64,000 nt of DNA from Balanoglossus misakiensis (taxonomy: Eukaryota; Animalia; Hemichordata): positions 10,915,129 through 10,979,128 of the forward strand of contig CM082576.2 of the NCBI GenBank assembly GCA_040954595.2, written 5' to 3'. The translations under genes and the position numbers were made by a program. Numbering within the stretch: the stretch's first letter is position 1; every line of letters starts with the position of its first letter. The notes beneath the pieces are model-generated. The model ran no database searches and was not told the DNA's origin. It saw only the letters and a list, made by a program, of their open reading frames with translations. Shown here in pieces: positions 715 through 61,910 of the stretch.

Positions 715-6974
<6,260 letters not shown>

Positions 6975-14942: not shown

Positions 14943-16635
14943 GCAAGAAGTTTGAGAAATTGTTCGAACCGCGCAATTTGCCATGACACACGTTGTAAGA
15001 GCTGAATCATAGGTAGGTCGCGTACCGTACCTGACACAGGTCAAACTTAACAATTAGTGAACAATTGGCGAGAGCTGTATTAAAAACTGTTGTAAGTGCC
15101 CGATACTAAGACAGCAATGACCAAAATCCGGTCTGTGACGTGATCTGCATGAGATGTATCACACAAACTTCTGTTCTTATGGAGCCACGCGATAACATTT
15201 TGGTCGATCGAAAACATTTTCTCGGCCGGCCAAAAATTCACGTTTGTAGGCTGAAACGACATATTATATTTTTTTAAGTTGACCCCAATAACAATTGATA
15301 GTCAATTAATCATGTGGTAAACACGATCCACTGAAACTTTAACTGCTATCTTGGATTTGACTTTAACAAGGCTTGACCACCGTATTATTCTAGTAACAGG
15401 GTACACACTACAATAGTTGCGAGCTTACGTTTGCCGAACTTGTGGTGGTGCGCCTTCTCGCCAAATTCCTGCACTTTTCTGGCACAGAGGATGGTACGAA
15501 ATTAGTAATTACTGATCGATGCCACTTCCTCCATAACATATTATTGTTTCACGACATCCTCCGTCATTTTGACAATGTTGATGGGAATCGGAAGGGGGAA
15601 TTAGCGCTGCCCGTACCCAGATACAGATGTAATCGTTCGTCGCTTGGTTCATTGTTTGAAACGGTTTTTTTAAAAATCGGTATGGGTTCGTTTTTATCAC
15701 AAGGATTCGGATAAATACATGAAAGCAATTTTGAAAGAGGGACTAGAGTTTGAGAAGAAGATTTAAGAAATCAAAAGAGAGATTGCATGTCACCCGAGAC
15801 GTGGTTTCAAGACATTAAAAGCTATCGCGCTCTCTCACTGTCTATGCTTTTAATACAAAAAGGGGTTGCATCTCCCGAGGCAGTTCCCGTTTATGGCAAA
15901 CAAAGGTAACACACGTGTGTAGGAAGCGACCTATAGTAGTGGTATGCTTGTCCGATAAAATATGGCAATGTATAAATGGGCATTGTCTGCCACTTGAGGA
16001 AACTGTGTGTGAAATCTCTCCGGTCGGTGTCAGAGAGGAAGGTCATTTCAGTGCCAAACCGTTATTATACCTTTGAGTCAGTCTAGGCAAAACTCTGTCA
16101 TTTCAAGGTCAGAACCGACCAGGCAATGTAGCTGCCTTTAAAGACGTACCCGTTAGTGTCATCGAAAAATGTCGGTGTGACCTCCACAGCACGAATTTGA
16201 CGAATTTCTATCACGAAGCTCCACATTTGCTGCACTATCTCGACCAGGTCGGCGCCGAAAAAAGGACGACTCCAAAATCCCCGATGTGCATTCAGACATT
16301 GTGAATAGTTGGATATCACATTGCCACGCAAATAATCTGTATCATTTGGGCACATTAAAACGACGTTTCTCTCTTCTAATTTCAAGAACACTATTAAAGT
16401 ACAGAACGATCGACCCGATTCAACGACGCAGGGTCCCATTTGCAAGTGGTGTCTTTGGAACAGTCTAAAGATGAACATTTCAGACGATGGTGTTCTGGTG
16501 TTCGAAGTGAAAGCTTCAGTCTGTTTGAACATCCGTTTCAAAACGAAAGTTGGATTTTGTTTTGTCGTCAGGGAGTCCTGTTTTTTAATACAGTCTTTGT
16601 CAAAATTTGTGATTTAAGATAACATTTATTTTTCA

Positions 16636-19749: not shown

Positions 19750-20543
19750 CATCACGTGGAATTTTCCGCCATGGCTTTGTCCGTGGGTACCGCACGTGTC
19801 CAATCGAGAGAGTCACATTGTAATTTAGTCACCGAGTTTTGCTAAATGTCTATACGCACACGACATGGATTGAAATGCCTGGTTCCGTCTTACCCGCTGA
19901 TCACAATAGGCCAATCGCAGTATGCCGTCATCAGATCGGGTGGGTCCCCATTCGAAACGTCCCATTGGTGGGGAAAGTCAGTCCACGCGCCCGTTAACAA
20001 AATCCAAATTCGCGCACCGGGCTGATGGAGCCTCGTAACGGGAACGTAATCACGTCCAAATAATTCCAGTGACCAAACCGGCGCGAAAATGGACTTTGAA
20101 ATCGGAAATGTAAATCTATTGAACACAAGTAGGGCAGATAAGAGCCAGGAAGCCTTGGGAAGGACTGCCCCTTTATCGATTGTAGCGAGAGGGCCCGATT
20201 CCCTCATCACCTCCGGAAGTGGCGTCAAAGTAGATTTTTCATCCCCATTACGTTATGATCATGAACTTCAGGGATAACCCTGGTTCCCCTTTTCGCGCTT
20301 CGCGGAAACTGGCATAGGTTGACTCATTGGCGATCTTCATCAACCTATCAGCCCTGTCGATGACGTAAAATTCATGTTGGCGGCTACTGGCGGAATCCGT
20401 TAAGTAAGCGAAGACAAGGGAAACCCCATCGAAATGCTTTTTTCAGTAATTGTTACAAAAATAAGTAAAAATAATTTCATGACGTTCTCAGTCTATAAAA
20501 CACGGGGCATGGAGACAGAAAGAAACATACTAAGAACTACCAG
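19750..20543 (+). promoter_or_regulatory. Proximal inducible-type promoter and short non-coding exon of the cytokine-like gene
   Basis: TATAAAA at 20494; kB site GGGAAACCCC at 20418; kB-like GGGATAACCC 20271, GGGAAAGTCA 19971 and GGAATTTTCC 19758; AP-1 TGACTCA 20320; TGACGTAA 20361; GAS TTCGCGGAA 20299; ETS CCGGAAGT 20213. Donor CAG|GTAATA at 20543/20544 and acceptor ttttcccgccAG at 20742, 13 nt before the ATG. Confidence 0.65.
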
Positions 20544-20755
20544 GTAATAATGAACATCTAGATGTCCGTGACAGAACAGAGAACTTTTTTGTAATCTGAA
20601 AAATGTTTTGTTTTCATCGTCACTACGAGTAACAACATGGAGGTATTCCGTTATTGCAGTGGAATACTGCCATGCACAGCTTTGCGGCTATCAACTGAAA
20701 AATTGCCTAACCACTCCTTATTTCCTCTCATTTTCCCGCCAGAAAAAGCCAAAGA

Positions 20756-23582
20756 ATGAACTACTTCAAAGTCACGGTGGCGTTGTGCATCCTTGGAGCC
20801 GCGCTGTTGGCCTTTGCCGCGCAGCCGGGAGAGGCGAAATCGCTGAACTCTCTCCTCCGACAGAGACGGTCGACACGGTGCCAGGCCGAGACGAACTTCT
20901 GCCAATATGTCGTCAACGATCCTGTCCACAACTGGGACTACTACCTCCACAACCTGCTGGCCGAATACGTGAGTATGGCGTTGGCACTCAAAGGGTCGCT
21001 CACTTTTCGCGGCATTATTTTAGTTTCTCTTGATTGCTCATTTATGTTGTTCAGTTCACTGAAATATTCTGTATGACCGGTAGTCGCAATAATTTTAACT
21101 CACGCCCTGTATATGCATATGACACAGGTGTACTTAGATCATTTAAAATTTGACTGTGTCTCCCTATTTATACGGAAATTAACCCGAATAAGCTTATGCA
21201 CGAGATTTCGTTTCGACCCACCACACGAAAAATGCGACTCAATCGTGAAAGTACAATCCTTGGTAATCGTTTTATCTGTCATGAATTGGAAGACTCCTCT
21301 ATCGCACAGGCGGCTACCACAAACTATCGTCAAGATTTGTCTTTTACAAAATAAAATGTACGCACCAATTGATTTTGGATCACTCAGACACAATGAGGAC
21401 GTCTCTGGTAAATATTAAATAACTAATAACCGTGTCCAAATTCCTTTTTTTACTCCTTACAGAAAGACAGACGCCAGCCCAAACCAATCTGGCAAAGACC
21501 TCCATCTGGTTTGTTGATCTATGATACCGATACCACCTGCTTCAATGCTATGAACGTAAGTTGTAATATTGCGCATATCAAAATTTCAACAGAATTAACT
21601 CGTTCCTCTCTCTCTCCGTACTTGGACCAATTTGTTTTTTGGGCTTGGCTACAGCCTTGATGAAGGCATAATCCTAATATCAAACGGAGGATGTCAGATT
21701 ATTTTATTTGCGCTGTAACTTTTTCGGATGTCACGGGAAAACCCAAGCGCGTACCGTTGGTGTTGTAATTAACAGGTGCCAACCTCAACGGTAATTGATT
21801 AGCAGGGATTGTACAACACCACATGTACAGGATATTATGTCACCTTGTTACACACACCTGTCGATAAAGTGAACAAAACTGGCCATACCGGTAGTACCTT
21901 TTTAACCGACCGCAGATGGATTACGCGCAGTGAGCAAAAATGTTCCATCTAAATTAACGTGGTTTGGCAAGGGCGATTTTTTTTACAGTTTCCATCAGTA
22001 GGCTCTCTGTCTTGGGGGGGGGGATTTGAGTCATCCAAGAGAGTATTTTATAAATAGCACCGGAAATCTACGACTGTCATGGAACTGGCTTATGAATCAT
22101 GAATGGATGGAGTGCGTATCATACGCGCGCTGTTGACCACAACAATAATCAGTGGGCAGGACAATACATGATTGTAAACTTCGACCTTTGGTATACGGCG
22201 CTTCTGAAGAGAACAAATAATGTGACTTACGAGTTCAGTAGCGTATAGCAGTCTTGCCTTGATTTCAATTTGGGGTGCAGAATTACCCGGTGGTCGTTCC
22301 GTCGAGAGGTTCTTCTTACACGAACTCTGTTGCTTTGTCATTGCAGAAGGTCGACCAGGCGTGGGTCCACCAGTGCGAGCAGTCCGACATGTTACCCTGG
22401 GTGGCCAGAATTGTTCAGGACGAGACGGGCAGAAGCGACAGCTTGAGGGACGACTTCGTCACGCTGCAGACGTACGTCAACAACACGGTCAAGACACTCG
22501 ACAGCTACGTAAGTCCGGTCTCCAATCTCGCGAGACTTCAACCTCATGAGTAACACTATTCAAATTTACAGTGAAACGACTGGTGGGATCGCCACCTATA
22601 CACAAACGAAATCCACACAAAACTGTGCAAGTAAAACACAAAACCGTCAATACAATCTAAAACCAGGATGTACATGTTTCATTCGCGTGAATGAAAACGG
22701 GTACAATGGGGTCTCCCAACAACACTTGACCCGTACTTAGCAACATATTATTACGTGATATCACGGGTCACCAGCGGTGTGGCCACACCAATTGCGAAAA
22801 GCTTGGATTTATCAAACAAACGGTCTACAAAATAAACGTCCGGGTTCTCTCTACAAAAGGAAGTTCCATATATATAATTTAGTATAAAATAAACCGCAGT
22901 GTAGACTCAAGTGTGAGTCGGGATGTAGGGTAACTTACATCTGATTTAATCAATTGGACAGCGAAGGTCTTTAGACCAAATAAACTTTAGTCACGTTCGT
23001 ATACAGAACTCCTTTTATAGAGCACTTTTTGTTATGAAAGGTTAGGCGAGGTGAAACAATTAACTTTTTATTACATGGCGATTTCGAAGTTGGCAGAGCA
23101 CCAACCTTTTGCATTGGGGAAGGCCTTTACTCTGTAGCTTTTTATAAACGCATTCTCATCTCGACGATTTCTTTCTTTCTATTTCCCAGATTGCACCAAT
23201 GACGGCATGCGACAGCTATTCAGAGAACAATGGCTGCACCATTGATGAAATGGTTCCTCCTCCCCGCGCATGCGTCTGGGTAAGTATTTTTGTCAATCCC
23301 CAGAATATAAACTGCCCAGCCACGCGAGATCTCTCAGGCTCTCGCGGCGTTCCGTAAATGGTCCATTCACGCAAATTTCGCGTTTGACCACTTCACTTCC
23401 GAAGGTATACTGTTTGTTAACTGCATATACGTTCTCGTTCTATCTTGACTCTGCAGGATAACTCTATCGCCGCCGAGAGGGACATTGACTACTACACTTC
23501 TGTCCTGGAGAGCCTGGAAAGCTCCGGCAGCAAGATGCAACAGACCTTCCAGCAGTTTCGCCTGCCCGACGGTACCTGTTAA
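20756..23582 (+). CDS. Secreted 227-aa protein; putative long-chain four-helix (IL-6/IL-11/LIF/CNTF-like) cytokine
   Basis: Five coding exons with canonical splice sites and all phase-0 introns: 20756-20968, 21463-21555, 22347-22508, 23190-23279, 23457-23582. Protein: MNYFKVTVALCILGAALLAFAAQPGEAKSLNSLLRQRRSTRCQAETNFCQYVVNDPVHNWDYYLHNLLAEY|KDRRQPKPIWQRPPSGLLIYDTDTTCFNAMN|KVDQAWVHQCEQSDMLPWVARIVQDETGRSDSLRDDFVTLQTYVNNTVKTLDSY|IAPMTACDSYSENNGCTIDEMVPPPRACVW|DNSIAAERDIDYYTSVLESLESSGSKMQQTFQQFRLPDGTC. Confidence is about 0.9 for the gene model and about 0.65 for the cytokine call. Confidence 0.8.
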
Positions 23583-24700
23583 GGGATGTTGTCTCCACCG
23601 ACCGCCCTCGCTAAAGTAATCTTTATAAATTTAGTCGTGTGTGTGTGTAGTTTAACGGTGATATTTATTCTTTTTTTAAGTTATTGTTATTTGTAGGCAT
23701 TTCTTCAGCGAGACAAGTGTGAGTCATTATTTTCCCGAAAAGAAACAAACCGACCGTGTAAGAGTGAGCCGTTGTTTTGTCAATACGATTGATCGAAATT
23801 AATTCGTAAAAATGTTGAAATTGAAATAATCCAGATAATTTCAACGCAGGTCTATCCTAATTATTGGTTTGAAATGAGAGAGAAAATTGGAGGTAAAAAT
23901 TGAGCGACCTTCTTTAAATCGAAACAAAAATCCTTGACAAAACATTGGCAAGCTCTGAGTCTTAATTTTAAGTTGCTTGATTTCAAGCGATTTTCAGTGA
24001 TATCCCATGGATATGATCTGCAGAGGTTGGACGTAATTCCTAACCTCTATTAAAATTGTGAAATATAGGCTATAGCAAATTCTCTGACCCAGTCAACCGG
24101 GGTTCTAATCATTCTATTGTTTGATTCATTTTCGCTCTGTCTGTTGTTGTTCAAACGCGTCAACACCAAAACAAGTGTGATTTTTTTCATGATTCCCCGC
24201 GGCGTACAAAGCATGACCGCAAGTCTTTTATATAGTCTACGTTTCACAATTGGCCTATATTAGGCTTTTGAAACAACAGTATTTAATTAGTGTGATGATT
24301 TGCTAGGAAATGAAGTTTCCCACAATCATTGCAAGACTGCTTTAATTCTTGCCAAAACAGTAGCATTGTTACATTCAAATTTATCCGCCCAGTCTGTAGT
24401 CGTATTAGATTTTAAGAATAGAGTTTGCTTTAAAAGACATATAAGATGTAGTCGTTTAGTTGTGTGTTGATATATTTAAAATGTATTTATATTTTAACTT
24501 ATTTAGAAGTTTGCGGTGTAATTATTTCATAGTACCAGTAAGTTTGAAAGTGTTATTTTATCAGCGTCAAGTATTCAATGCATAATCTAGTTTCTTTTAA
24601 AAACTTAGATGTGTAGAGCATTTTGAAAAAGAAGTACAATCCCAATTTGTGATGGGTTTCTGAAAACGGCATTGTAATAAAATATTAGCGTTACAAATTA
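23583..24700 (+). promoter_or_regulatory. AU-rich 3'UTR of the cytokine-like gene with AUUUA elements and a polyA signal
   Basis: ATTTA at about 23629, 23663, 24281 and 24379, a cluster at 24474, 24485 and 24501, and AATAAA at 24676. Confidence 0.55.
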
Positions 24701-25816: not shown

Positions 25817-26939
25817 ATGTGCGTGGACTGCATCAAACAACAATGTCCCGACAGGGTACGTATTCTTCGCTAGGTACAGGTAAACCATGCATCATGGATT
25901 CTCCGAGAGTCGATGGTCCCATTGGCTGTTTTGATGACTGTATCTGTGCCATTTGCACTTCCTACAAAATTCAGGCGATTTCGTCCCTTCCACTGTCGCT
26001 TGTTTAATGTTATTAGGTATTCTTACGCCGGGGCCTAGGTAGCTGTTGCTGCAGTTTTGTGGCCCCACAACACCCCTTGAAATCGTCAAGGGGAGTCGTG
26101 GGGCTACAAAACAGCAGCAACTGCTCTCACCCACATTCCAATCCAACACTGGCATATTATTACATATATTACAACACTCTTTTTTTGCAGGGAAGTCTGT
26201 GTCTAGACACTGGTGCTTACTTGCTGAATTTTCAAGGATGTTCAGAGTGCAAAACCAAAGAACCGCTGGAAATCCAAGACAGACATGAAGAGACACAAGA
26301 TGATGGGGAGGAAACCGTCACGTACCAACGTATGTATGCATGCAGTAATAGTCTGGGATCAATGGTAGTCTGTAGAAATCACACATGATACACACCAAGG
26401 AGACTTTGTGTGCAAGTCAATGGATGTAATTAATGACATGCCAATTCTGAAACTCTTACAGCGTTGTCACCTTTTGGAGTGTGATGTTTTTTTCTCAACT
26501 ACAATGTATCTCATTATTTTCTTGTTTGCAGACATCTGTCCAAACTGCAAGCATGTTGTAGCAGAGCACAGCTATACATTCAGTGTGGAAGATGACTTTC
26601 AGGTATGTAAACAAACAAACAAAGTCAATTTCAGGAAAGAAAGAGAACAACACAACCATATTCTGTGTCGACACAAGTCATAGTTGTCGCCGATTCTTTG
26701 CAACTGTGCATGCATTGCCAAAAGCTGACAATTCATCATGAGCAATATTTAGTGACATATCATCCCCAACTTTCTTCTCCTGGTGCCATCTGACTGTAAT
26801 CCACATTCACCCAAACAATTTTCAACTTTTGTTTTGTACTGTACAGGAATACCAGATGTTCTGCATGTTGTGTGGCAGAGGGACTGACACAGTCAGTGTT
26901 TTGCCAAATGATCCCAGGAAGCAACAAGCGCTCTTCTGA
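25817..26939 (+). CDS. CHURC1: Protein Churchill (zinc-binding), 113 aa, 4 exons
   Basis: Exons 25817-25855, 26191-26329, 26532-26602, 26847-26939 give [33 protein letters not shown]...[57 protein letters not shown], which has the Churchill Cys/His pattern and C-terminal motif. Confidence 0.96.
26041..26125. repeat. Inverted repeat/hairpin, 40-nt arms and 5-nt loop, in CHURC1 intron 1
   Basis: Arms 26041-26080 and 26086-26125 are reverse-complementary at 35 of 40 positions. Confidence 0.85.
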
Positions 26940-28223: not shown

Positions 28224-31200
28224 CTACGGTGTCACTTTGAATCCTGTCAACAGATACCCACTGCTGCCACTCATCATGTTTTCTGGATGTGTTCTTCTTG
28301 GCAACACCTGCAACGCAGAAAAACATTCAGACTATTGCCTCTACTTTTAGAGGATGGTCATTTTAAACACAAAACACTGAATTGCAAATTGCTGATATGT
28401 CTCTATACTCTAAAAGTCGCTATCAACTCTTGAGATTTTCACGGGTGTTTTGACAGTTTCAAACTTCATGTTATTAAAATTATACTCCCCCGAAGTGATT
28501 CTGTATGATTTTGAACCTTGTTCAACAAATGTAACCTTCCATACCTGATACTCCCGTAGCCAGTTCTCTGTAATCTTCACGTTGACAGTCTCTTTGCTCT
28601 CCCGCAACTTCCCGAAACATTCGTACAGCGGCTGGAGATGAAATGGGATGTCATTTTTCGTTTTCAACAATCAGACAATTGTACCAAAATTTAGTGTGAA
28701 TTTGCTAATGATAACAGAAATGCAGGTTAACTCCCACCACCTCTATCACAGACATTTCGCTCATAACGAGCATGTTTCAATTATCCACATCAAGAGATGT
28801 TTGGCAACAAGTTTGCCAGCAAAACACTTCAGTTTGTTTCTCACCTCAATGTACTGGCTGTACACCATGAATGGTCTGGACGGCGCTAGGAAATCCAACA
28901 GTTTCATCACAATGGGACACGGGTCATATTTGCTGGCTATGATAAGTCTGTATTATGGGAGAGAGAGAGAGAGAAGAAACACGCAAAAGATCATGCTTAG
29001 AATGCATAATGTGCAGAATTGCGAGATTTGACAACAGCCACCAACAATCAACTAAGGCATTATGACCTCACTCTTTGTATCTGAATGAATGTACTTACAC
29101 ATCAAAGTCTCCCTGTTCTACTACATTCCTGGCCGCCTCTAACTGTTGTCTCCGCTTCTCCTTTTTGGCCAATCTCTCCGGGTTCTGAAAACAATTAAAA
29201 TGTTGAGAAAAAAAAAGTACAGTTTGTGACAGTACAATCTAAATGCCTATAGACTAAAGCTGGCAAAAAGAACAATATAACATACGTTTACATCTTCCTG
29301 ACTTTGCCATTGAAATGTTTTCTAATGCCAATAAACTACACATTACTTACCACTGGTCTCTTTTGTCCTCTTGGTGAAGCAGGAGCAGTTTCCTCATCCA
29401 CTGCTGAACTTGCTTCAGCCTCATCTGTTGCCATGGTTACATCCTCATCATTGCTGGAAGAGTCCTTCTCCTCTTCTGTTTTCACAGCGGCAGCAGCTTC
29501 ACTGCCTATGTTCTCCTCCTCGGTGTCAGACACAGTCTCCTCGCCACTTACTTTCCTGGAGTCAGTCCCACTGTCCTTGACATCATCGCCGACTTTCCCA
29601 CATCCGCTTTCTACATCGCTCGTCCATCTCGCATCACCACCGACTCGCTTGCTGCCAATCCCTGCATCACTAGTTTCCATGGCAACGCTAGGATCGGCTG
29701 CACCGTCACCTTCCTCAGTCTTCAATCTTTTTACCTCTCTCTCCCCGTCATCAGGTGCAGCCTGCGAAGCTGACTGCACCGGTGTCCTTTCATCAGATTT
29801 CTCGGCTGCAGGCTGAATTTTTAGGCTGTTCGCCTTGTTCAACGGAAAACTGTGAAGTATCTGGAAGAATTCTTTGGGGAAATTGAAACCATCCATGGAG
29901 GTCCTCACAGGTGCTTCGCCATGGTACATGTGTACAAGAGTGCCAAGCCCTGAAATCAAACAAGGTATTTCATAGTTGGTTTGACCAGACCACGACATGA
30001 CAACGGGACTGGACCTCACCTTGGTGGTGGCAGGGTCAAAATCTTTCTACAGATGTTAAAACAAGCAACTTGAGGGAGTATGTATGAATTATTTTCAGTA
30101 TTCTGCAGTTACTTTATGTGGCAGAAGTTTATAACCAGTACGGCTTCCAAAAGCTCACCTCCCATTCTGTCCATGACGGCTCCAAGTAGAAGTCCCATGC
30201 AGCTTTCCACAACCATGGCTTTCATGTTTGCATGAACGTTGCTGAGAGTTAATATCTGGCCCATTGTGTCGTTGCGAAGAAAACTGAGAAATGAACAGAA
30301 TTATCACCATGGGTTTTCCTGCACTATCACAACCTATGATATTATTTACATGTTAACAGTTAATTAAAGGTTGCAACACCCACGAGCATTACAGTGTTCA
30401 CCCTTAAATGAATGAATTGGCAACTGGCACCCCACTTACACGACTTTCGGTGATACTTTGCTCTGGTACATTTCACACATCAATCTCGTGGTTGGTCTCA
30501 GAATGGTGAACAGAGGAATGTGCCTGTTGAGGGAAGCATGTTAAAAAATATCAGACACTAATAAGAAGTTTAAATCCACCAGAATCACCACTTCAAAGCA
30601 TCCCTACAAGACTATAGTCAATAGACACTTCTCATATGGTAAATTGAAACTTAAATCTCTATTAGCTGAAACTTTTGACTATTTTTATGTACAGTAAAAA
30701 ATGTACTTACTTTTGCTTTTTCTTTTTGATGTATTTTTCTTGAGAATAAATATTCTTCTCTTTAAAAGTTGCACTGTTCTCAACAATCTGATCAATCAAC
30801 TCCTGTAACATTGAAAAAACAGGAGGAAGTATTTCACTGATGCCTGTTGCTGTAAACATACTTCATACAAAAAACAAGCATTTCTCACTTTCACATAAAG
30901 TTGAAGTTAACTAGGTTTTCATTCCCTAATATGTTATCTCTCTTACCTCTCCTTTCATTCCATCTTTCTTCAATGCCATGATCTCATCCTGTGATAACTT
31001 TTGTGCCGTGTTGTCATCAACTATGTTTCTGTTGTCACCGACATCATGAATGTCTGGCAAAAAAGCAACAGTTGAAGTACTCAATAATACATACAGTCAC
31101 TACATATTGGGAAGTACATAGTACAAATAAGACCATTAGCCATTTCCTCTGTGACAGCATTGACTCCGTAGTATATCTGTGATCGAGGCCCCGTTAAGAT

Positions 31201-31645: not shown

Positions 31646-32362
31646 GCTGTCGCCCGCGAAATTTCGGTATGATGCAAACAGGAGTGAAACTAAAGCGTTA
31701 CCTATAACCGGAAGTCATTTCCACATGGAGCACATTCGTTTGTTCGGAGGAGAACGAACGCTTTCCTCATGGTGACGTCATAAACTCGAACAAACGGTGG
31801 CGTTGTCACGGACTTTTGTTTTTATGTGGAACACTTCTAACCATACACCGTGCGTACGCGTGGTCATATCCAAAACATACGAATGCGGATAGAAACACAA
31901 CTGAAAAAAAGGTATGAAATGCTTCACAGAATATTTAATGTAGATGAGTGTGTGTAAAAGAGTTTGTTATTGTAAATATTATGAATATAGGACACGATAA
32001 TCTTCACGCTTGTTCCTGCTATTTCCACTGCCGCATATGTCTCCGTCTCATGCAGACTTCATGGACTTTGTTCCCCCGAAAGTTGATATTTCCGTTTTCT
32101 TGAAACCTCATACTACAGTACGTTCAGATTATTTAGGCAGTGTTATAATATAAAAGGGAAGTAATTAAACACAGATCACGAATAACAATTCTTCTTTCAC
32201 ACTAAATTCCTTTCACGTATGCTTTTATTCAGGTAAGAGACGGTGTACTGCTGCATGAGTTCAGTTGGAGTAACACTCATATAAATGTAGATTGCAGTTA
32301 TAGGATGCAGGACAAAATCAACCGAGCGATGGTAACTGAAATTAGGGAATTCCAACGAGCGC
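31646..32362. promoter_or_regulatory. Putative bidirectional promoter region between TRMT6 and the 661-aa ORF
   Basis: Head-to-head start codons about 720 nt apart; ETS CCGGAAGT at 31708 and CRE TGACGTCA at 31773. Confidence 0.45.
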
Positions 32363-34348
32363 ATGGATCACACCAGCCACAGTAACTTATCGGTAGACAG
32401 GCCGCTTCCAAGTTTATTAAATTTGGCCCAAGCCCAATCACACAAGAAGAATGAATACGATCTGGCAGCCTCGGCAATCGCATCTGCCCACTCATTTTCA
32501 TCTTTTGTAATTCCGGGCGCGGCCGCGGGTTCAATACTGAATCTGTTGCCAGAGTTACAAGGCAGTTCATCCAAGTATTACTACGACCCCGCTGACGCCG
32601 ATTTGCACAACTGGACACTTCTGGACAAATCGGTGCTAGAGGCACTCGAACCGTACGCACACCAGCTTTCCAGTTCTTTATACGAAACCTACACTTTCGT
32701 GAACGAGTTGTCGGGGCCTTCTGGTTTGCGCCTGGCGAAGACCAGCCGACCGCTAGCCATTGCAGCCGGCCTCGCCAGTTTTATCAACAAGACGTACCAA
32801 AAGCACGGAAAGGGTGTAACGCGCGCCTCGAGCGACAGAACGGATTCGCACAAAACGATCGCCGCACCGCACGACGCGCACGCTTCTTCTTCTTCTTCCG
32901 AAGACAAAAAGAACGCTCGGTTTGAATATCGGCGTGGCGGGGACGTTAGACCAGAGCTAAGCTGTGACAAAGATGAACTCTTGGAAAATCTGAACCTACA
33001 GAAGTTGCACGACTTCATCCTCGATATACAGGAAAAGGACTTTGCCGCTGAATTGGACATTCCCCCGAGAAGCTTTCAGGTGACCGACAGCGAAGGCAGC
33101 GAGGAAATGTTTGGCCCAAACGTCCACTTCAAAGGGCCAAACACCAGGCGCCCCGCGGTGATAGTTGTAAAACCGCATAAACTGTGGAATACGTCCAACA
33201 GCAGCACAGCAGCGAGCAATGATGACCGAACGCAACAAAAACCACCAATTAATGAAGATAGGAGGAAAACGTTTTTCCCAGAAGAGAACAGAGTTACATA
33301 TTTCATATATTCCGGCGACGGACAGAAGTATTTGCGCAGGTTTCAGCAGATAAAGGAATCCAACTGCCACCATTATCGGGTCGTTGTCATGTTTTCTACA
33401 AAGCACGCCAAGACTGGACCACTCTCTTGCTCTGATGATGCCAAACTACTTCACGATGATAACGAAGAGGACGTCGAAACACTGTCTGCCACTCTCAACT
33501 TTCACAAAAGCGATCATTTCGAAGATTATTCTGTTAATAGCATGTCGAACACTATGGAATATCTGAAAGATGTAGGTGTGACCAAGACCTCATCCCTACA
33601 CGACGAACTGAAAGCTGGGGGCATGGAGTCCCTCAAATCCGAATATTACGGCGCGGATGATGGTAGCAGTAACTCGGTGGTCGCCACGGATGACGAAAGA
33701 CAGCGCAGCCTGAGCGTGCCAAACTTACAGAATTGGGTCAAAATGACTTCTATTCCTGACGACGATGGGGTCGACGAAACTACGAAAGATAAGCCCCGGG
33801 ATAAGCCTAAAAATGCCAAAAATCCCAGGATTAAGTTACTTAAAGATACGATTCAGAAGAAAATGAAACAGCTGAGGAAGCGCAGAGTAAGCCCGTTGCC
33901 GGGCAACGACGAAACTAACAGAACTAGTAGAAGCACCCAGAAATATGAGGAGTGCATGCAATACATCAAAATGTGCACCAGGCCGCCGGCGAACGGCCTC
34001 CGAGTGACGCTGTACGTGCAGACGCCGGACAGGTTTGAGATGTGCAAACTCAAGACAGATTTCCTCATCCACTCGATGAAGCTGTTCTTCTCGTCCCCGA
34101 AGGACAGAATCGACATTCGCTCGGTGTCGCACATCGCCGACGAGCTAGAGTCGATCATCGAGCAGTACGGTGCACGGTCGCAGTTCGAGTACGACTTCGA
34201 AAACCTACTCGTCTGTCGTGCCGCTCTGGTGGTGCCGAGAGAAGCAGGCATTTTGACCAAGAGGCGAAATTCGTACTTTCTCGGCAACATTTGTGAAGTT
34301 CTCGAAATTCGACGAGAACAGCTGGTCGTGTTACTAGCCTACAAGTAG
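32363..34348 (+). CDS. Intronless 661-aa protein of unrecognised family
   Basis: 1986-nt uninterrupted ORF bounded by an upstream in-frame TAA (32333); coding-like composition with ordered blocks separated by acidic/basic low-complexity linkers; AATAAA at about 34490 and 34501. Confidence 0.75.
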   Translation: MDHTSHSNLSVDRPLPSLLNLAQAQSHKKNEYDLAASAIASAHSFSSFVIPGAAAGSILNLLPELQGSSSKYYYDPADADLHNWTLLDKSVLEALEPYAHQLSSSLYETYTFVNELSGPSGLRLAKTSRPLAIAAGLASFINKTYQKHGKGVTRASSDRTDSHKTIAAPHDAHASSSSSEDKKNARFEYRRGGDVRPELSCDKDELLENLNLQKLHDFILDIQEKDFAAELDIPPRSFQVTDSEGSEEMFGPNVHFKGPNTRRPAVIVVKPHKLWNTSNSSTAASNDDRTQQKPPINEDRRKTFFPEENRVTYFIYSGDGQKYLRRFQQIKESNCHHYRVVVMFSTKHAKTGPLSCSDDAKLLHDDNEEDVETLSATLNFHKSDHFEDYSVNSMSNTMEYLKDVGVTKTSSLHDELKAGGMESLKSEYYGADDGSSNSVVATDDERQRSLSVPNLQNWVKMTSIPDDDGVDETTKDKPRDKPKNAKNPRIKLLKDTIQKKMKQLRKRRVSPLPGNDETNRTSRSTQKYEECMQYIKMCTRPPANGLRVTLYVQTPDRFEMCKLKTDFLIHSMKLFFSSPKDRIDIRSVSHIADELESIIEQYGARSQFEYDFENLLVCRAALVVPREAGILTKRRNSYFLGNICEVLEIRREQLVVLLAYK

Positions 34349-39300: not shown

Positions 39301-40979
39301 GACCTCCAGCTATTTTAAAAGTAATGTGAACCACAACACATTTTTATCTGGCCTGAATTAAGTAATTGAACATATTATTATTAAAATACATGTACAACTG
39401 TACTTGTATACGGGCAAACAGACACTGAAAGTTTGAAAGCCATGTAATCACACACTTGGAAAAAGATACACGGACCCAATTCACATACCCCCTTTAACCT
39501 GCGTACATTGTACCTTAAGAATGCATGGTTCACGGCTTAACATCTGGTCAAATTCCTAGTCAGAGTGTGACATGACCTATATTACAAGCAGACTCAGGTC
39601 CTGTGGAGTTGATGAAGATCATCCCAACCTGAGAATACAGCATGCACTAGGTCAGACACCAAGGTCAGGTCACCACACAGTCTCCCTGAACACGTCCAGT
39701 CTAGGGTGTCATTCATTCATTCATTCATTCATTCATTCCCTTTTGATAACCTTACCTGCAAAAGGCACGTAGATTTGTCTGATGCCAGAATGGAAGGAGA
39801 TAAAGACATCAAACTTGTATTTGGCTGTAATCTCTGTCAACACTGCACATTCCGGTTCTGCGAATACAGAAAACATGGATTGGAGTCAGCTCTGTCCTAG
39901 TTAAAATACATTATGGGTTGCTAATGTGCTGTGATGTGAAACCAGTGTACAGTCTCGTCCATGATGATTGCAGTTTGATGGAAGCCATGCTTGGGGTCAC
40001 TTTCCTATGATATGATGCTTGCTACATCAAGACTGACAATTATAACACTATAGAAAGTGTAACTTTGGTTATTACAACAAACAGTTTCAGCCATTTACCA
40101 TGATGCACTTGTATGTAAAGCAAATGAGAGTGACCTTAATTTTTCAGATTTTGTTCTACTCATCATCCCATTGGAGCTAGCCCACTCATAGAATGAGGTA
40201 CCTACCACTCCTGGGTAAGATCGAGTTGCCATATTGTGAAGAATCTGGACAAAATGTTTTTGGATGAAGTGAATCAGAGCATGGACGTGTCTAATACGTC
40301 CATACCCAGAAGTTCAGAATCATCCATACTTGTTATACATGTACACACCTGAAAATGCATGCACTCCCCTATACTCTTCATCCTTGGAGTTTCCTGAGCT
40401 GCCACGCCCACCAAACAACCAATCAAAATTCCGGTTGAGATCAACTCCGGTACTGGTGCCCCTCCAACAGTAATTCTCAGTCTCCTCTATGTAGTGTCTC
40501 CCGTCTGGATTCACCATGGCAATTATAAACAAGTCCAGTTTGGAAAGAACCTTTCTGCTGAAACTCTCCCCGTAACTTCCCCTGGGAGCGGCCAGACCGC
40601 TTGTGATGTTCTGAAGTAAGTAAATCATGCTTTCCACGGGGAAGTATTCTCTGGCGTGTTCCCCGAACGACAGTAAAATTTTGGGCTTGTGCTGAGACAG
40701 CCTGTACGTCCCTGTGAACCTGTGGCTGTCTGAAAAATTTGTCATCCTCACTACATACTGGGGTCTCCCTTGACGTGAGGTATAGTCTTTCTCCAATTTT
40801 AAGTAGTAAGGATTCCTAGAGACTATTTCTTCAAGGTGCTGACCCAATCTTTGCATGTTGTGATAGTATTTGTAATCGGGTATGTATAATTCATTTTGAC
40901 GTCTCACATCTCTGCACTGGCACTTTTGTAAATACACGAGAATAAAGAGTACCATGATCTGTATAGTCCTTTCTTCCAT
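36374..40979 (-). CDS. M14-family zinc carboxypeptidase lacking a prodomain, with a C-terminal transmembrane helix, about 424 aa, 6 coding exons
   Basis: Exons 40349-40979, 39756-39857, 37637-37809, 37264-37359, 36955-37053, 36374-36547. Signal-like N-terminus IMVLFILVYLQKCQC; motifs FGEHAREYF, VNPDGR, WRGTSTGVDLNRNF, YRG.HAFSEPE, SFHSG, YVADGTIFDY, FAIEL; TM segment LVYAFLAFFIMAVVFIAI followed by a basic tail. Confidence 0.88.
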
Positions 40980-42009
40980 ATCGATACTTTTAAACAATGC
41001 CTTTGCCTCGCCGTGAACCTCGACAGTTTGGTAGATCCAGCTGCATGTGTTTATGCCTTCGGATAACGTTTCACAAATGTAGACTCAGCTGGCTTGATTA
41101 AGCATGTCTAACATGGTTGAACTTGGTCTGATTTTTTGGTCATTAATGCTCATTACATGTGAAAACTTATATACACCTCAACACACTTGAAAGGCACGAA
41201 ATCTCGTCGTGTATCTGACACAGAATAAACACACATGGGCATAGTGCAGTGAGAGTTGCGGACTGATCTCAGACCAGTAATGATAATCTGTACACAACAC
41301 AGCAGAGTGTCAGGGTCATCGGGACCATAGACTTACTCCATCCTCATCCATGGAGCTCCGTTGAGAAGAGATGTACATGTATGCTGCTACCATTACCAGA
41401 TGGATTGCGCGAGGACGATTCCAACTTATCGAATCCTGAAGGCGTTCGATTGCCTATCCAGACACTCATGCATACCACAGTGGTTCACTTTACCGTATCA
41501 TCGACGCTTGAACTTTGGACAACACATGGTTATCTCAGTAACTGCGATTCGGATTGAAACATACTAACATACACTCCAAACGAAACTCTCAAACTCTCCT
41601 CCACGTCGGTCGTCTAAACTGCGCCGGAGTTGTGCGCAGGGGAAACCTCTGCCTCGTACAAGGTATTAGCTGAAGTGCGGATTAAAGAATGGTGGGTTTT
41701 CATATATCTCGACATTTAACTAAATAAGCCGATGTAGATAACATAAAACTTTACGCGTGTTATTGATAAAGCAACTTAACTGTCAACATTTTGAAGTACG
41801 AGTGCAACCCTGAAATCAGTGAACAGTCCGAGGGGAAACTTTACCCATGCGCAGACCGATTAGGGAATCCCCACAAACTCTTATACTGCCCTCTCGCGAC
41901 CACTATTTCAACTCAGTGTAACCCTTGACCTTTGCGAATGTTTTCAAAACGTGTTGTTAGCTTCAGCTTTAGGTGTTCTGTCCGTCTTTTAAATTGCAAA
42001 TACCCGAGA

Positions 42010-42940
42010 ATGTCTTCATCCACGGAGCAAAATGCAGCTGCTAACGTTAGCGAAGGGGCCAGTGAAGCCCAAGCCAACAAAATGGCTGGAAAAGCAGAAA
42101 TTCTTGCAGAACTAGAGAGTCGGGGATTTGACATTATAACAGTTGAACATCCCGAGGTAAAGGACTATGCTGTGGGCATGGGGGATATACATATGTACAA
42201 AATGTGATGGGAAAGGGCATAGGAACTTGTATAGCTATCTATACAACATACTGTTACGCGACTATACATGTATATGTAGCAATGTATGTCTTGTAACTAG
42301 CTGTCACTCAGAATATGTCATCTGTCACTGTGCATCATGCATTGGTTGGATTGCAAACTTACAGACATCTTCATAAACAATTAACAGTTCCCATCATATG
42401 CAGATAACTGATGCTGGTGTGTTCAAATCTCCCATTAACAAAGAAAATGCAGTTTGAACTCATACATCAATCTTATAACTTTGTTGCATCATTTTACTTA
42501 CCACATAGGTTTTCACAGTGGAGACAATGATGCCTCATCTTAAAGATGTACAAGGTGTTCCAGCGAAGAACTTCTTCATGAAGGACAAAAAGAAGAAAAG
42601 ACTATGGCTACTCACTACCCGCTATGACCGAGAGGTGAACCTAGCAAAAGTCGCCAAAGAGGTCGGAGGTTCCGGTGGCTTTCGATTTGCAGACGAAGCC
42701 ATCATGTTGGAAAAGATCGGCGTTGGTCAAGGCTGCGTCACCCCGCTTGCATTGTACAACGACAAAGGCCAGGATGTGCGACTGTTACTGGACAGTGACC
42801 TCGTCAATGGTGGACACGAACGTATATTCTGTCACCCCATGGTGAATTCAGCATCCACTGGTCTCAAGCCGGACGATTTTGTGAAATTCATGGAATCTAC
42901 CGGTCACTCACCAGTTTTAGTCAACTTTGAGAATCTGTGA
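42010..42940 (+). CDS. PRORSD1: Prolyl-tRNA synthetase-associated domain protein (ProX/PrdX, YbaK-family tRNA deacylase), 192 aa, 2 exons
   Basis: Exons 42010-42156 and 42509-42940; motifs VEHPEVFTVE, KNFFMKDKKKK, FRFADE, GVGQGCVTPLALYND, FCHPMVNSAS. Confidence 0.92.

Positions 42941-46614: not shown

Positions 46615-61910
<15,296 letters not shown>

Follow-up and report, generated by a model that had tools for sequence, protein, structure and literature searches.

Which ligand serves the cytokine receptor-like sequences of acorn worms is the question raised by a 64,000-nucleotide (nt) stretch of the Balanoglossus misakiensis genome (contig CM082576.2, positions 10,915,129 to 10,979,128; hereafter, the window), which holds a five-exon gene for a small, probably secreted protein. 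One source places IL-6 in vertebrates alone, even though a hemichordate has receptor-like and JAK sequences; for Saccoglossus, it lists an IL6R-like sequence and a kinase-domain-only JAK (PMC13203501). Both leptin and ligands of the IL-6 family are described in another as known only from jawed vertebrates (PMC12284397), and have since been extended to lampreys and hagfish (PMC13081863). A 2022 review reports no type-I helical cytokine detected in acorn worms and names a growth hormone (GH)-like protein in amphioxus (KJ735508), an invertebrate-deuterostome precedent for this class (PMC9010856). IL-1 has been found in Saccoglossus by motif- and structure-led searches (PMC13736523). Our search of the literature on hemichordate and invertebrate helical cytokines, with subscription journals mostly outside its coverage, found no title or abstract on the acorn-worm family described here. 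We think it probable, with some reservation, that the protein is secreted, trimmed by furin and, as a long-chain class I cytokine, clusters a receptor of the gp130/Domeless type to signal through JAK-STAT. On the evidence of structure modelling, its standing as a new long-chain class I cytokine in a phylum reported without such genes is well supported.

The gene and its acorn-worm family

The five exons (Table 1) join in frame into 227 codons. All four introns are of the GT-AG type and in phase 0, with GTGAGT or GTAAGT at the donors and, at the acceptors, CAG preceded by a pyrimidine tract; GC content at third codon positions is 0.52 to 0.89 in the exons, against an intron GC of 0.38 to 0.46. 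The spliced product shares 164 of its 227 residues with XP_070579238.1 of Ptychodera flava (224 amino acids [aa], an "uncharacterized protein" in RefSeq), with every exon covered and zero gaps at the exon junctions. Since this identity runs gap-free across the junctions, the joined product is not due to chance, and since the Ptychodera record matches throughout all exons, the model is backed by an independent annotation. Judged from the sequence, the five-exon gene is real.

The product starts with a hydrophobic segment (aa ~6 to 22 by hydropathy), found also in XP_070579238.1, in Saccoglossus kowalevskii XP_077862471.1, and in the cytokine-like part of XP_002739484.2. It is followed by the basic motif RQRR at aa 35 to 38, with R-X-X-R at the equivalent position in XP_070579238.1 and XP_077862471.1. 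The mature chain predicted after RQRR has 189 aa, a mass of 21.8 kDa, and an isoelectric point of 4.5. An earlier note on this locus, made from the letters alone, had proposed that five exons splice into 227 aa and that a signal peptide precedes a mature part of about 189 aa. The intron structure and the Ptychodera identity bear out the former, and the hydrophobic segment and the putative cleavage motif agree with the latter. The note also called the protein unannotated; RefSeq already annotates the orthologues, so what the gene lacks is a name and not an annotation.

A query with exon 1 retrieved a single relative among 147 candidates, XP_070579238.1. A phmmer search over 1.84 billion representatives gave four matches, three of which were kept: XP_077862471.1, Glandiceps talaboti XP_078001066.1 (a model without a matching first exon), and the C-terminal part of Saccoglossus XP_002739484.2. 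The relatives found thus amount to four sequences from three species, all acorn worms. A profile search of 912 candidates returned nothing beyond three proteins already known; none of 18 shorter candidates scored, none of 43 metagenome pattern matches was confirmed, and no second copy of the gene was found within the window (best other profile match, E = 0.25). As far as these searches reach, recognisable members of the family occur in acorn worms alone. The fourth phmmer match (P0005, E = 1.9e-5, 756 aa) was dropped as spurious, being repetitive and matched over 32 residues, and weak Pfam matches to unrelated families (best E = 0.0055) were likewise dismissed.

Within the family, the mature chain is identical at 151 of 189 positions (80%) to that of Ptychodera and 59% identical to that of Saccoglossus. 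Across the five sequences, 47 of the 189 mature positions do not vary; they are densest in predicted helix B (14 of 26), the loop between helices C and D (CD loop), and helix D. There are eight conserved cysteines, six invariant in all five sequences and two (C42 and C49) present in all four that have exon 1, and W186, in the CD loop segment, is invariant as well. So is an N-N-T sequon (aa 147 to 149, positions 22479 to 22487). It sits halfway along predicted helix C, which would be odd on a face that binds a receptor.

The Saccoglossus protein XP_002739484.2, named "carboxypeptidase B-like," appears to combine a carboxypeptidase with a second paralogue of the cytokine candidate. A carboxypeptidase gene of the window (4220 to 6971, forward strand) matches it, with most exons 57 to 72% identical, and the two window genes stand in the same order and on the same strand, about 14 kb apart. 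Because the window has this matching upstream carboxypeptidase on the same strand, the neighbourhood looks conserved, and XP_002739484.2 probably represents two fused genes. Saccoglossus seems to have two paralogues and the window one.

Predicted fold and structural neighbours

AlphaFold2 was run without templates on the mature chain of the Ptychodera orthologue (189 aa, 80% identical to that of the window). The best model (mean predicted local distance difference test score [pLDDT], 83.3; predicted template modelling score [pTM], 0.80) is a bundle of four helices, A to D, whose positions in the numbering of the window's protein are given in Table 1. Helix A is split by a six-residue break (11 + 16 residues), and helices B, C, and D have 26, 26, and 23 residues. 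The connections between A and B and between C and D are long, and the loop between B and C has seven residues. Residues 162 to 195 form coil and one four-residue helix, at a pLDDT of about 69 to 79. The first intron falls at the last turn of helix A, the second just before helix B, the third near the end of helix C, and the fourth in the CD loop. An up-up-down-down topology is suggested by the sequential alignment of the model, over 141 to 164 residues, to IL-11, CLCF1, IL-6, and CNTF.

The model was compared with 48,161 solved chains, and in a second run 710 Foldseek candidates were realigned; scores are VIA Z values. In the wide search, ranks 1 to 30 are all helical cytokines and ranks 1 to 11 all long-chain class I cytokines. 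IL-11 leads with a Z of 14.0 (root-mean-square deviation [rmsd], 3.3; 156 residues aligned), ahead of CLCF1 (13.6), IL-6 (13.3; rmsd, 2.8; 141 aligned), CNTF (12.9), IL-27p28 (12.8), the cytokine chain of 1i1r (12.7), LIF (11.8), placental lactogen (11.7), GH (11.2), and OSM (10.6). Class II chains reach 9.8 at best, and the first noncytokine stands at 7.1. In the second run, ranks 1 to 43 are all long-chain class I cytokines, headed by CNTF at 15.1 (rmsd, 3.2; 161 aligned), with prolactin at 12.3, G-CSF at 11.9, and interferon lambda (IFN-lambda) at 10.3. Foldseek itself placed prolactin (ranks 1 to 3 and 5), IL-11, IL-27, and GH in its first seven ranks, at probabilities of 0.91 to 0.96. A viral structure library gave no match at E <= 0.001. 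The fold assignment carries weight because of the Z gap to unrelated bundles and the nearly full-length, in-order alignment, and the modelling supports a long-chain class I four-helix cytokine fold.

Language-model features (Atlas) of the full-length Ptychodera orthologue point in the same direction: nine of the ten matches listed carry long-chain cytokine Pfam families. The top match (0.81) is an unnamed, mostly cnidarian cluster of 56 members (223 aa), and the next clusters (0.75 to 0.77) are prolactin, a mostly molluscan cluster (114 members, IL6 Pfam on 11%), IL-12A, cardiotrophin-2, G-CSF, IL-11, and CLCF1. The cnidarian and molluscan clusters are candidate invertebrate helical-cytokine families.

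Several results weigh against the favoured reading of a long-chain class I cytokine acting on a gp130/Domeless-type receptor. Sequence comparison gave no help: hmmscan of the five exons, XP_070579238.1, and four family members against Pfam matched no cytokine family, Hormone_1 included, and the searches of PDB sequences gave one chance match each (E = 0.9 and E = 1.2); lamprey IL-6 proteins are reported to be likewise missed by BLAST (PMC13081863). Atlas scores of 0.81 or less have the level of a lead, and a second Atlas query, with the mature Saccoglossus chain, returned no usable match. The alignment behind the fold model has nine rows (four proteins and five exon fragments), and only two of the five mature-chain models are confident (pLDDT of 83, 73, 45, 39, and 39). 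With the signal peptide in place, all five models of the full-length orthologue fall below 50 (best, 43.8). Foldseek had no match at E <= 0.001 (best, prolactin at E = 0.16 and a probability of 0.96; template modelling score by query, 0.59 or less), the search tool itself warns that helical bundles in general can give Z values as high as about 13, and identity in the structural alignments is just 4 to 14%. In gp130 cytokines, the hallmark of receptor site 3 at the start of helix D is a Trp in IL-6, IL-11, and p28 and FxxK in CNTF, CLCF1, LIF, and OSM (PMC10022904). A rough, gap-free back-count from the last aligned pair with CNTF, CLCF1, IL-6, p28, and IL-11 puts this register at aa 192 to 196, where no residue is aromatic; W186 lies 6 to 10 residues earlier. 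Finally, the gene has five exons in phases 0-0-0-0, a product of about 200 aa, and a likely signal peptide, as do intron-containing type I and type III interferons, the lamprey and lancelet homologues included.

The fold model and the structure search are what the earlier note had suggested as its check, and for the mature orthologue chain they give a four-helix bundle best matching CNTF, IL-11, CLCF1, IL-6, IL-27p28, and LIF. Its four amphipathic segments correspond to helices in long-chain order, except that the segment it named helix A covers only the second half of that helix. It had put helices B and C in one exon; exon 3 does hold helix B and most of helix C, whose end lies in exon 4. 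Its placing of the loops (exons 2 and 4, the latter rich in Cys and Pro) and of helix D (exon 5) agrees with the model. Of its assignment to the IL-6/LIF/CNTF family, the long-chain class I fold is supported and the subfamily is not, given the missing Pfam match, the leading place of prolactin in Foldseek, the absence of the site-3 aromatic at the estimated register, and the 0-0-0-0 layout, an interferon pattern that the note had not weighed.

Proposed mechanism and alternative readings

We favour a gp130-like mode of action, in which the precursor would be secreted and lose its signal peptide, the short propeptide would be cut off at RQRR, likely by furin, and the mature chain would fold as a long-chain bundle with four disulfides. 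It would then bring chains of a gp130/Domeless-type receptor together, and this clustering would activate JAK and STAT. C42 and C49 may be tied to C163 and C172 after helix C, as LIF's extension at the N terminus is to its helix C; the two cysteines at the N-terminal end and the two after helix C are reminiscent of LIF's tethered N terminus (PMC10022904).

The likeness to gp130 cytokines lies in the shape and length of the chain (best structural matches at Z of 10.6 to 15.1 over 137 to 164 residues). It differs from them in structural identity (6 to 12%), in the lack of a Pfam match and of an aromatic residue or FxxK at the estimated site-3 register, and in having eight cysteines, a propeptide ending in a basic site, an additional phase-0 intron in the CD loop, and a broken helix A. 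Long-chain class I genes have introns where helix A ends, where helix B starts, and where helix C ends, and a further one in the region of the signal peptide. In our model, the acorn-worm gene has introns at those three helix boundaries, none in the signal peptide, and the extra one in the CD loop. IL-6 genes are described with three introns in the domain, the signal-peptide intron being lost in some (PMC13081863). Regarding synteny with the IL-6 locus (e.g., TOMM7), none of 14 neighbouring open reading frames in the 64 kb belongs to the IL-6 neighbours named in PMC13081863, small exons not having been scanned. The modelling is best described by a separate acorn-worm family, nearest in shape to the gp130 cytokines and not assignable to IL-6, LIF, or CNTF. 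The Unpaired proteins of Drosophila are likewise invertebrate and are ligands of the gp130-like Domeless in JAK-STAT signalling (PMC13203501); none of them was among the matches of any sequence search that we made.

An endocrine hormone of the GH/prolactin type is an unlikely alternative, though the best of those we weighed. Such a hormone would have the same fold, bind two copies of one short receptor through sites 1 and 2 only, and act in growth or osmoregulation, like the amphioxus GH-like protein. Prolactin heads the Foldseek ranking, is the best named Atlas cluster (0.77), and gives the longest aligned spans (163 to 170 residues), yet in VIA comparisons prolactin (Z of 12.3) and GH (11.4) stay below CNTF (15.1) and IL-11 (13.6 to 14.0), in the range of 11 to 12. 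The site-3 aromatic is absent at the expected register, as this alternative would have it, and the acorn-worm protein ends in Cys, as prolactin does, but its sequence has no Hormone_1 match. The slow sequence change of the mature chain would also suit a hormone; it suggests a hormonal or developmental role more than an inducible gene. The eight cysteines contrast with the four conserved in vertebrate GH and prolactin, a comparison of number and not of position, and amphioxus GH-like proteins are described as highly derived (PMC9546618). Because no amphioxus protein matched in the phmmer or profile searches, the acorn-worm protein is not a recognisable GH-like orthologue.

It is quite improbable that the protein has the cytokine fold but acts on another type of receptor, namely a receptor tyrosine kinase (as do SCF, CSF1, FLT3L, and IL-34), requires an obligate soluble partner (as do CLCF1 and IL-27p28), or gives no signal. 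The ligands of kinase receptors in the wide search (IL-34 at a Z of 9.0, SCF at 7.5, M-CSF at 7.3, and FLT3L at 6.4) stand at least 5 Z units under the best long-chain cytokines. However, a shared fold alone shows no function, the partner-needing CLCF1 and p28 are among the top structural matches, and the invariant sequon sits halfway along helix C, which forms site 2 together with one other helix. The class I receptor-like and JAK sequences reported in a hemichordate (PMC13203501) count against this alternative.

We give little credence to a class II cytokine of the interferon/IL-10 type, an antiviral ligand that would be older than the lancelet interferons. The exon-4 segment, a full helix in interferons, is here a loop rich in Pro, Gly, and Cys, with a hydrophobic moment of 0.00 to 0.29 and a four-residue helix in the model, and the model has four main helices, not five. 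A Cys-x-Trp ahead of the last helix does occur, as in type I interferons, and interferons are among the fold matches (IFN-lambda at Z of 9.8 to 10.3, fish IFNa at 9.4), but class II values lie 4 to 5 units under those of class I, never above 10.3, and no class II family is among the Atlas matches listed. The layout of the gene is the interferon signature; five coding exons with introns in phases 0-0-0-0, a product of about 200 aa, and a signal peptide have served as screening criteria (bioRxiv 10.64898/2026.05.30.728932; PMC4929537). The former study describes interferons in lampreys and lancelets and in no other invertebrates, and its main text never names hemichordates. We downgraded this alternative because the fold model and both structure comparisons favour class I.

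Equally doubtful is that a shallow alignment made the fold an artefact of modelling, the protein being a different secreted helical protein rich in disulfides: low pLDDT in three of the five mature-chain and all five full-length models, Atlas's own structure model (pTM, 0.24, matching no cytokine structurally), and the lack of a significant Foldseek E value fit such an artefact, but even the poor full-length model (best Z in fold searches, 7.5) weakly matched prolactin, IL-27, CLCF1, CNTF, and IL-11, the language-model features likewise point to cytokines, and exon boundaries fall at or near the ends of the model's helices.

Sequence around the gene and meaning of the family

The features of the gene are collected in Table 1. 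An acceptor AG at 20741 to 20742, 13 nt ahead of the ATG, makes an intron just upstream of the coding start likely; an in-frame ATG at 20509 would lengthen the protein by 16 aa. For the NF-kB consensus, the whole window has six distinct sites, or eight strand matches with two sites counting on both strands, against 3.1 expected, and none of 100 shuffles reached eight. Downstream of the coding sequence, there are seven ATTTA pentamers in 1,118 nt, against 2.1 expected from the window-wide rate, which is uncorrected for local AT content. The upstream NF-kB-consensus site and the ATTTA motifs are weak hints of an inducible gene.

Table 1. Coding exons, motifs, and putative flanking elements of the cytokine candidate (positions in the window)
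Feature	Position	Strand	Length (nt)	Identity to Ptychodera	Remarks
NF-kB-consensus site	20418..20427	both			ends 66 nt upstream of the TATA-box candidate
Putative TATA box (20494-20499) and candidate short upstream exon	20494..20543	+			GT donor at 20544; sequence only
Coding exon 1 (aa 1-71)	20756..20968	+	213	38/71	likely signal peptide (~aa 1-27), short propeptide, furin-type RQRR, C42, C49, split helix A (aa 43-53 and 60-75)
R-X-X-R basic motif (RQRR, aa 35-38)	20858..20869	+			putative cleavage site
Coding exon 2 (aa 72-102)	21463..21555	+	93	27/31	last part of helix A, long crossover from A to B, short helix carrying C97
Coding exon 3 (aa 103-156)	22347..22508	+	162	43/54	helix B (aa 103-128) from the first residue of the exon, short loop between B and C, greater part of helix C (aa 136-161), N-N-T sequon (aa 147-149)
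Coding exon 4 (aa 157-186)	23190..23279	+	90	22/30	last part of helix C, crossover loop from C to D rich in Cys and Pro, C163, C172, C184, W186
Coding exon 5 (aa 187-227 and TAA)	23457..23582	+	126 (with stop)	34/41	helix D (aa 196-218), C-terminal C227
Putative 3' untranslated region	23583..24681	+			poly(A) signal candidates at 24049 (ATTAAA) and 24676 (AATAAA)

The next recognised gene downstream is a Churchill zinc-finger gene, of which one exon was found (PF06573, E = 6e-15; 26017 to 26388, forward strand). The nearest candidate gene fragment upstream (16098 to 16613, 171 aa) lies on the opposite strand; this coding-looking frame and another on the reverse strand (29336 to 30046, 236 aa) have no Pfam match, and neither does an uninterrupted open frame of 670 codons on the forward strand (32336 to 34348; none at E of 0.01). 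Farther along are a second M14 zinc carboxypeptidase (40320 to 41084, reverse strand), with most of its domain within one long open frame, and a forward-strand gene with an aminoacyl-tRNA editing domain (41929 to 42940; PF04073), which we take to be probably PrdX/PRORSD1-like; a perfect NF-kB-consensus site stands between the two, at 41863. A protein kinase gene, presumably MSK/RSK-like (46615 to 59806, reverse strand), has two kinase-domain regions, a Pkinase_C segment, and a low-complexity tail of about 500 aa. A long GTT-type trinucleotide microsatellite (about 5830 to 5985, forward strand), in an intron of the upstream carboxypeptidase gene, produces spurious homopolymer open reading frames in five frames.

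The surprise of a long-chain cytokine in acorn worms is moderate, there being invertebrate precedents in Unpaired, amphioxus GH-like, and lancelet interferon. We hold as rather unlikely the wider proposal that the protein founds an ancient long-chain branch, rich in disulfides and matured by proteolysis, which would join a class I fold to the interferon 0-0-0-0 plan, a gene layout kept from before the split of classes I and II, and that it would be the natural ligand of the gp130/Domeless-type receptor in acorn worms. If that were true, long-chain cytokines would, with the cnidarian and molluscan clusters, date back to the cnidarian-bilaterian ancestor. The family, deuterostome but not chordate, offers an outgroup for tracing how the gp130, GH/prolactin, and interferon families arose, and a small, conserved candidate with orthologues in Saccoglossus and Ptychodera, both laboratory species, makes the question of the missing JAK-STAT ligand directly testable.

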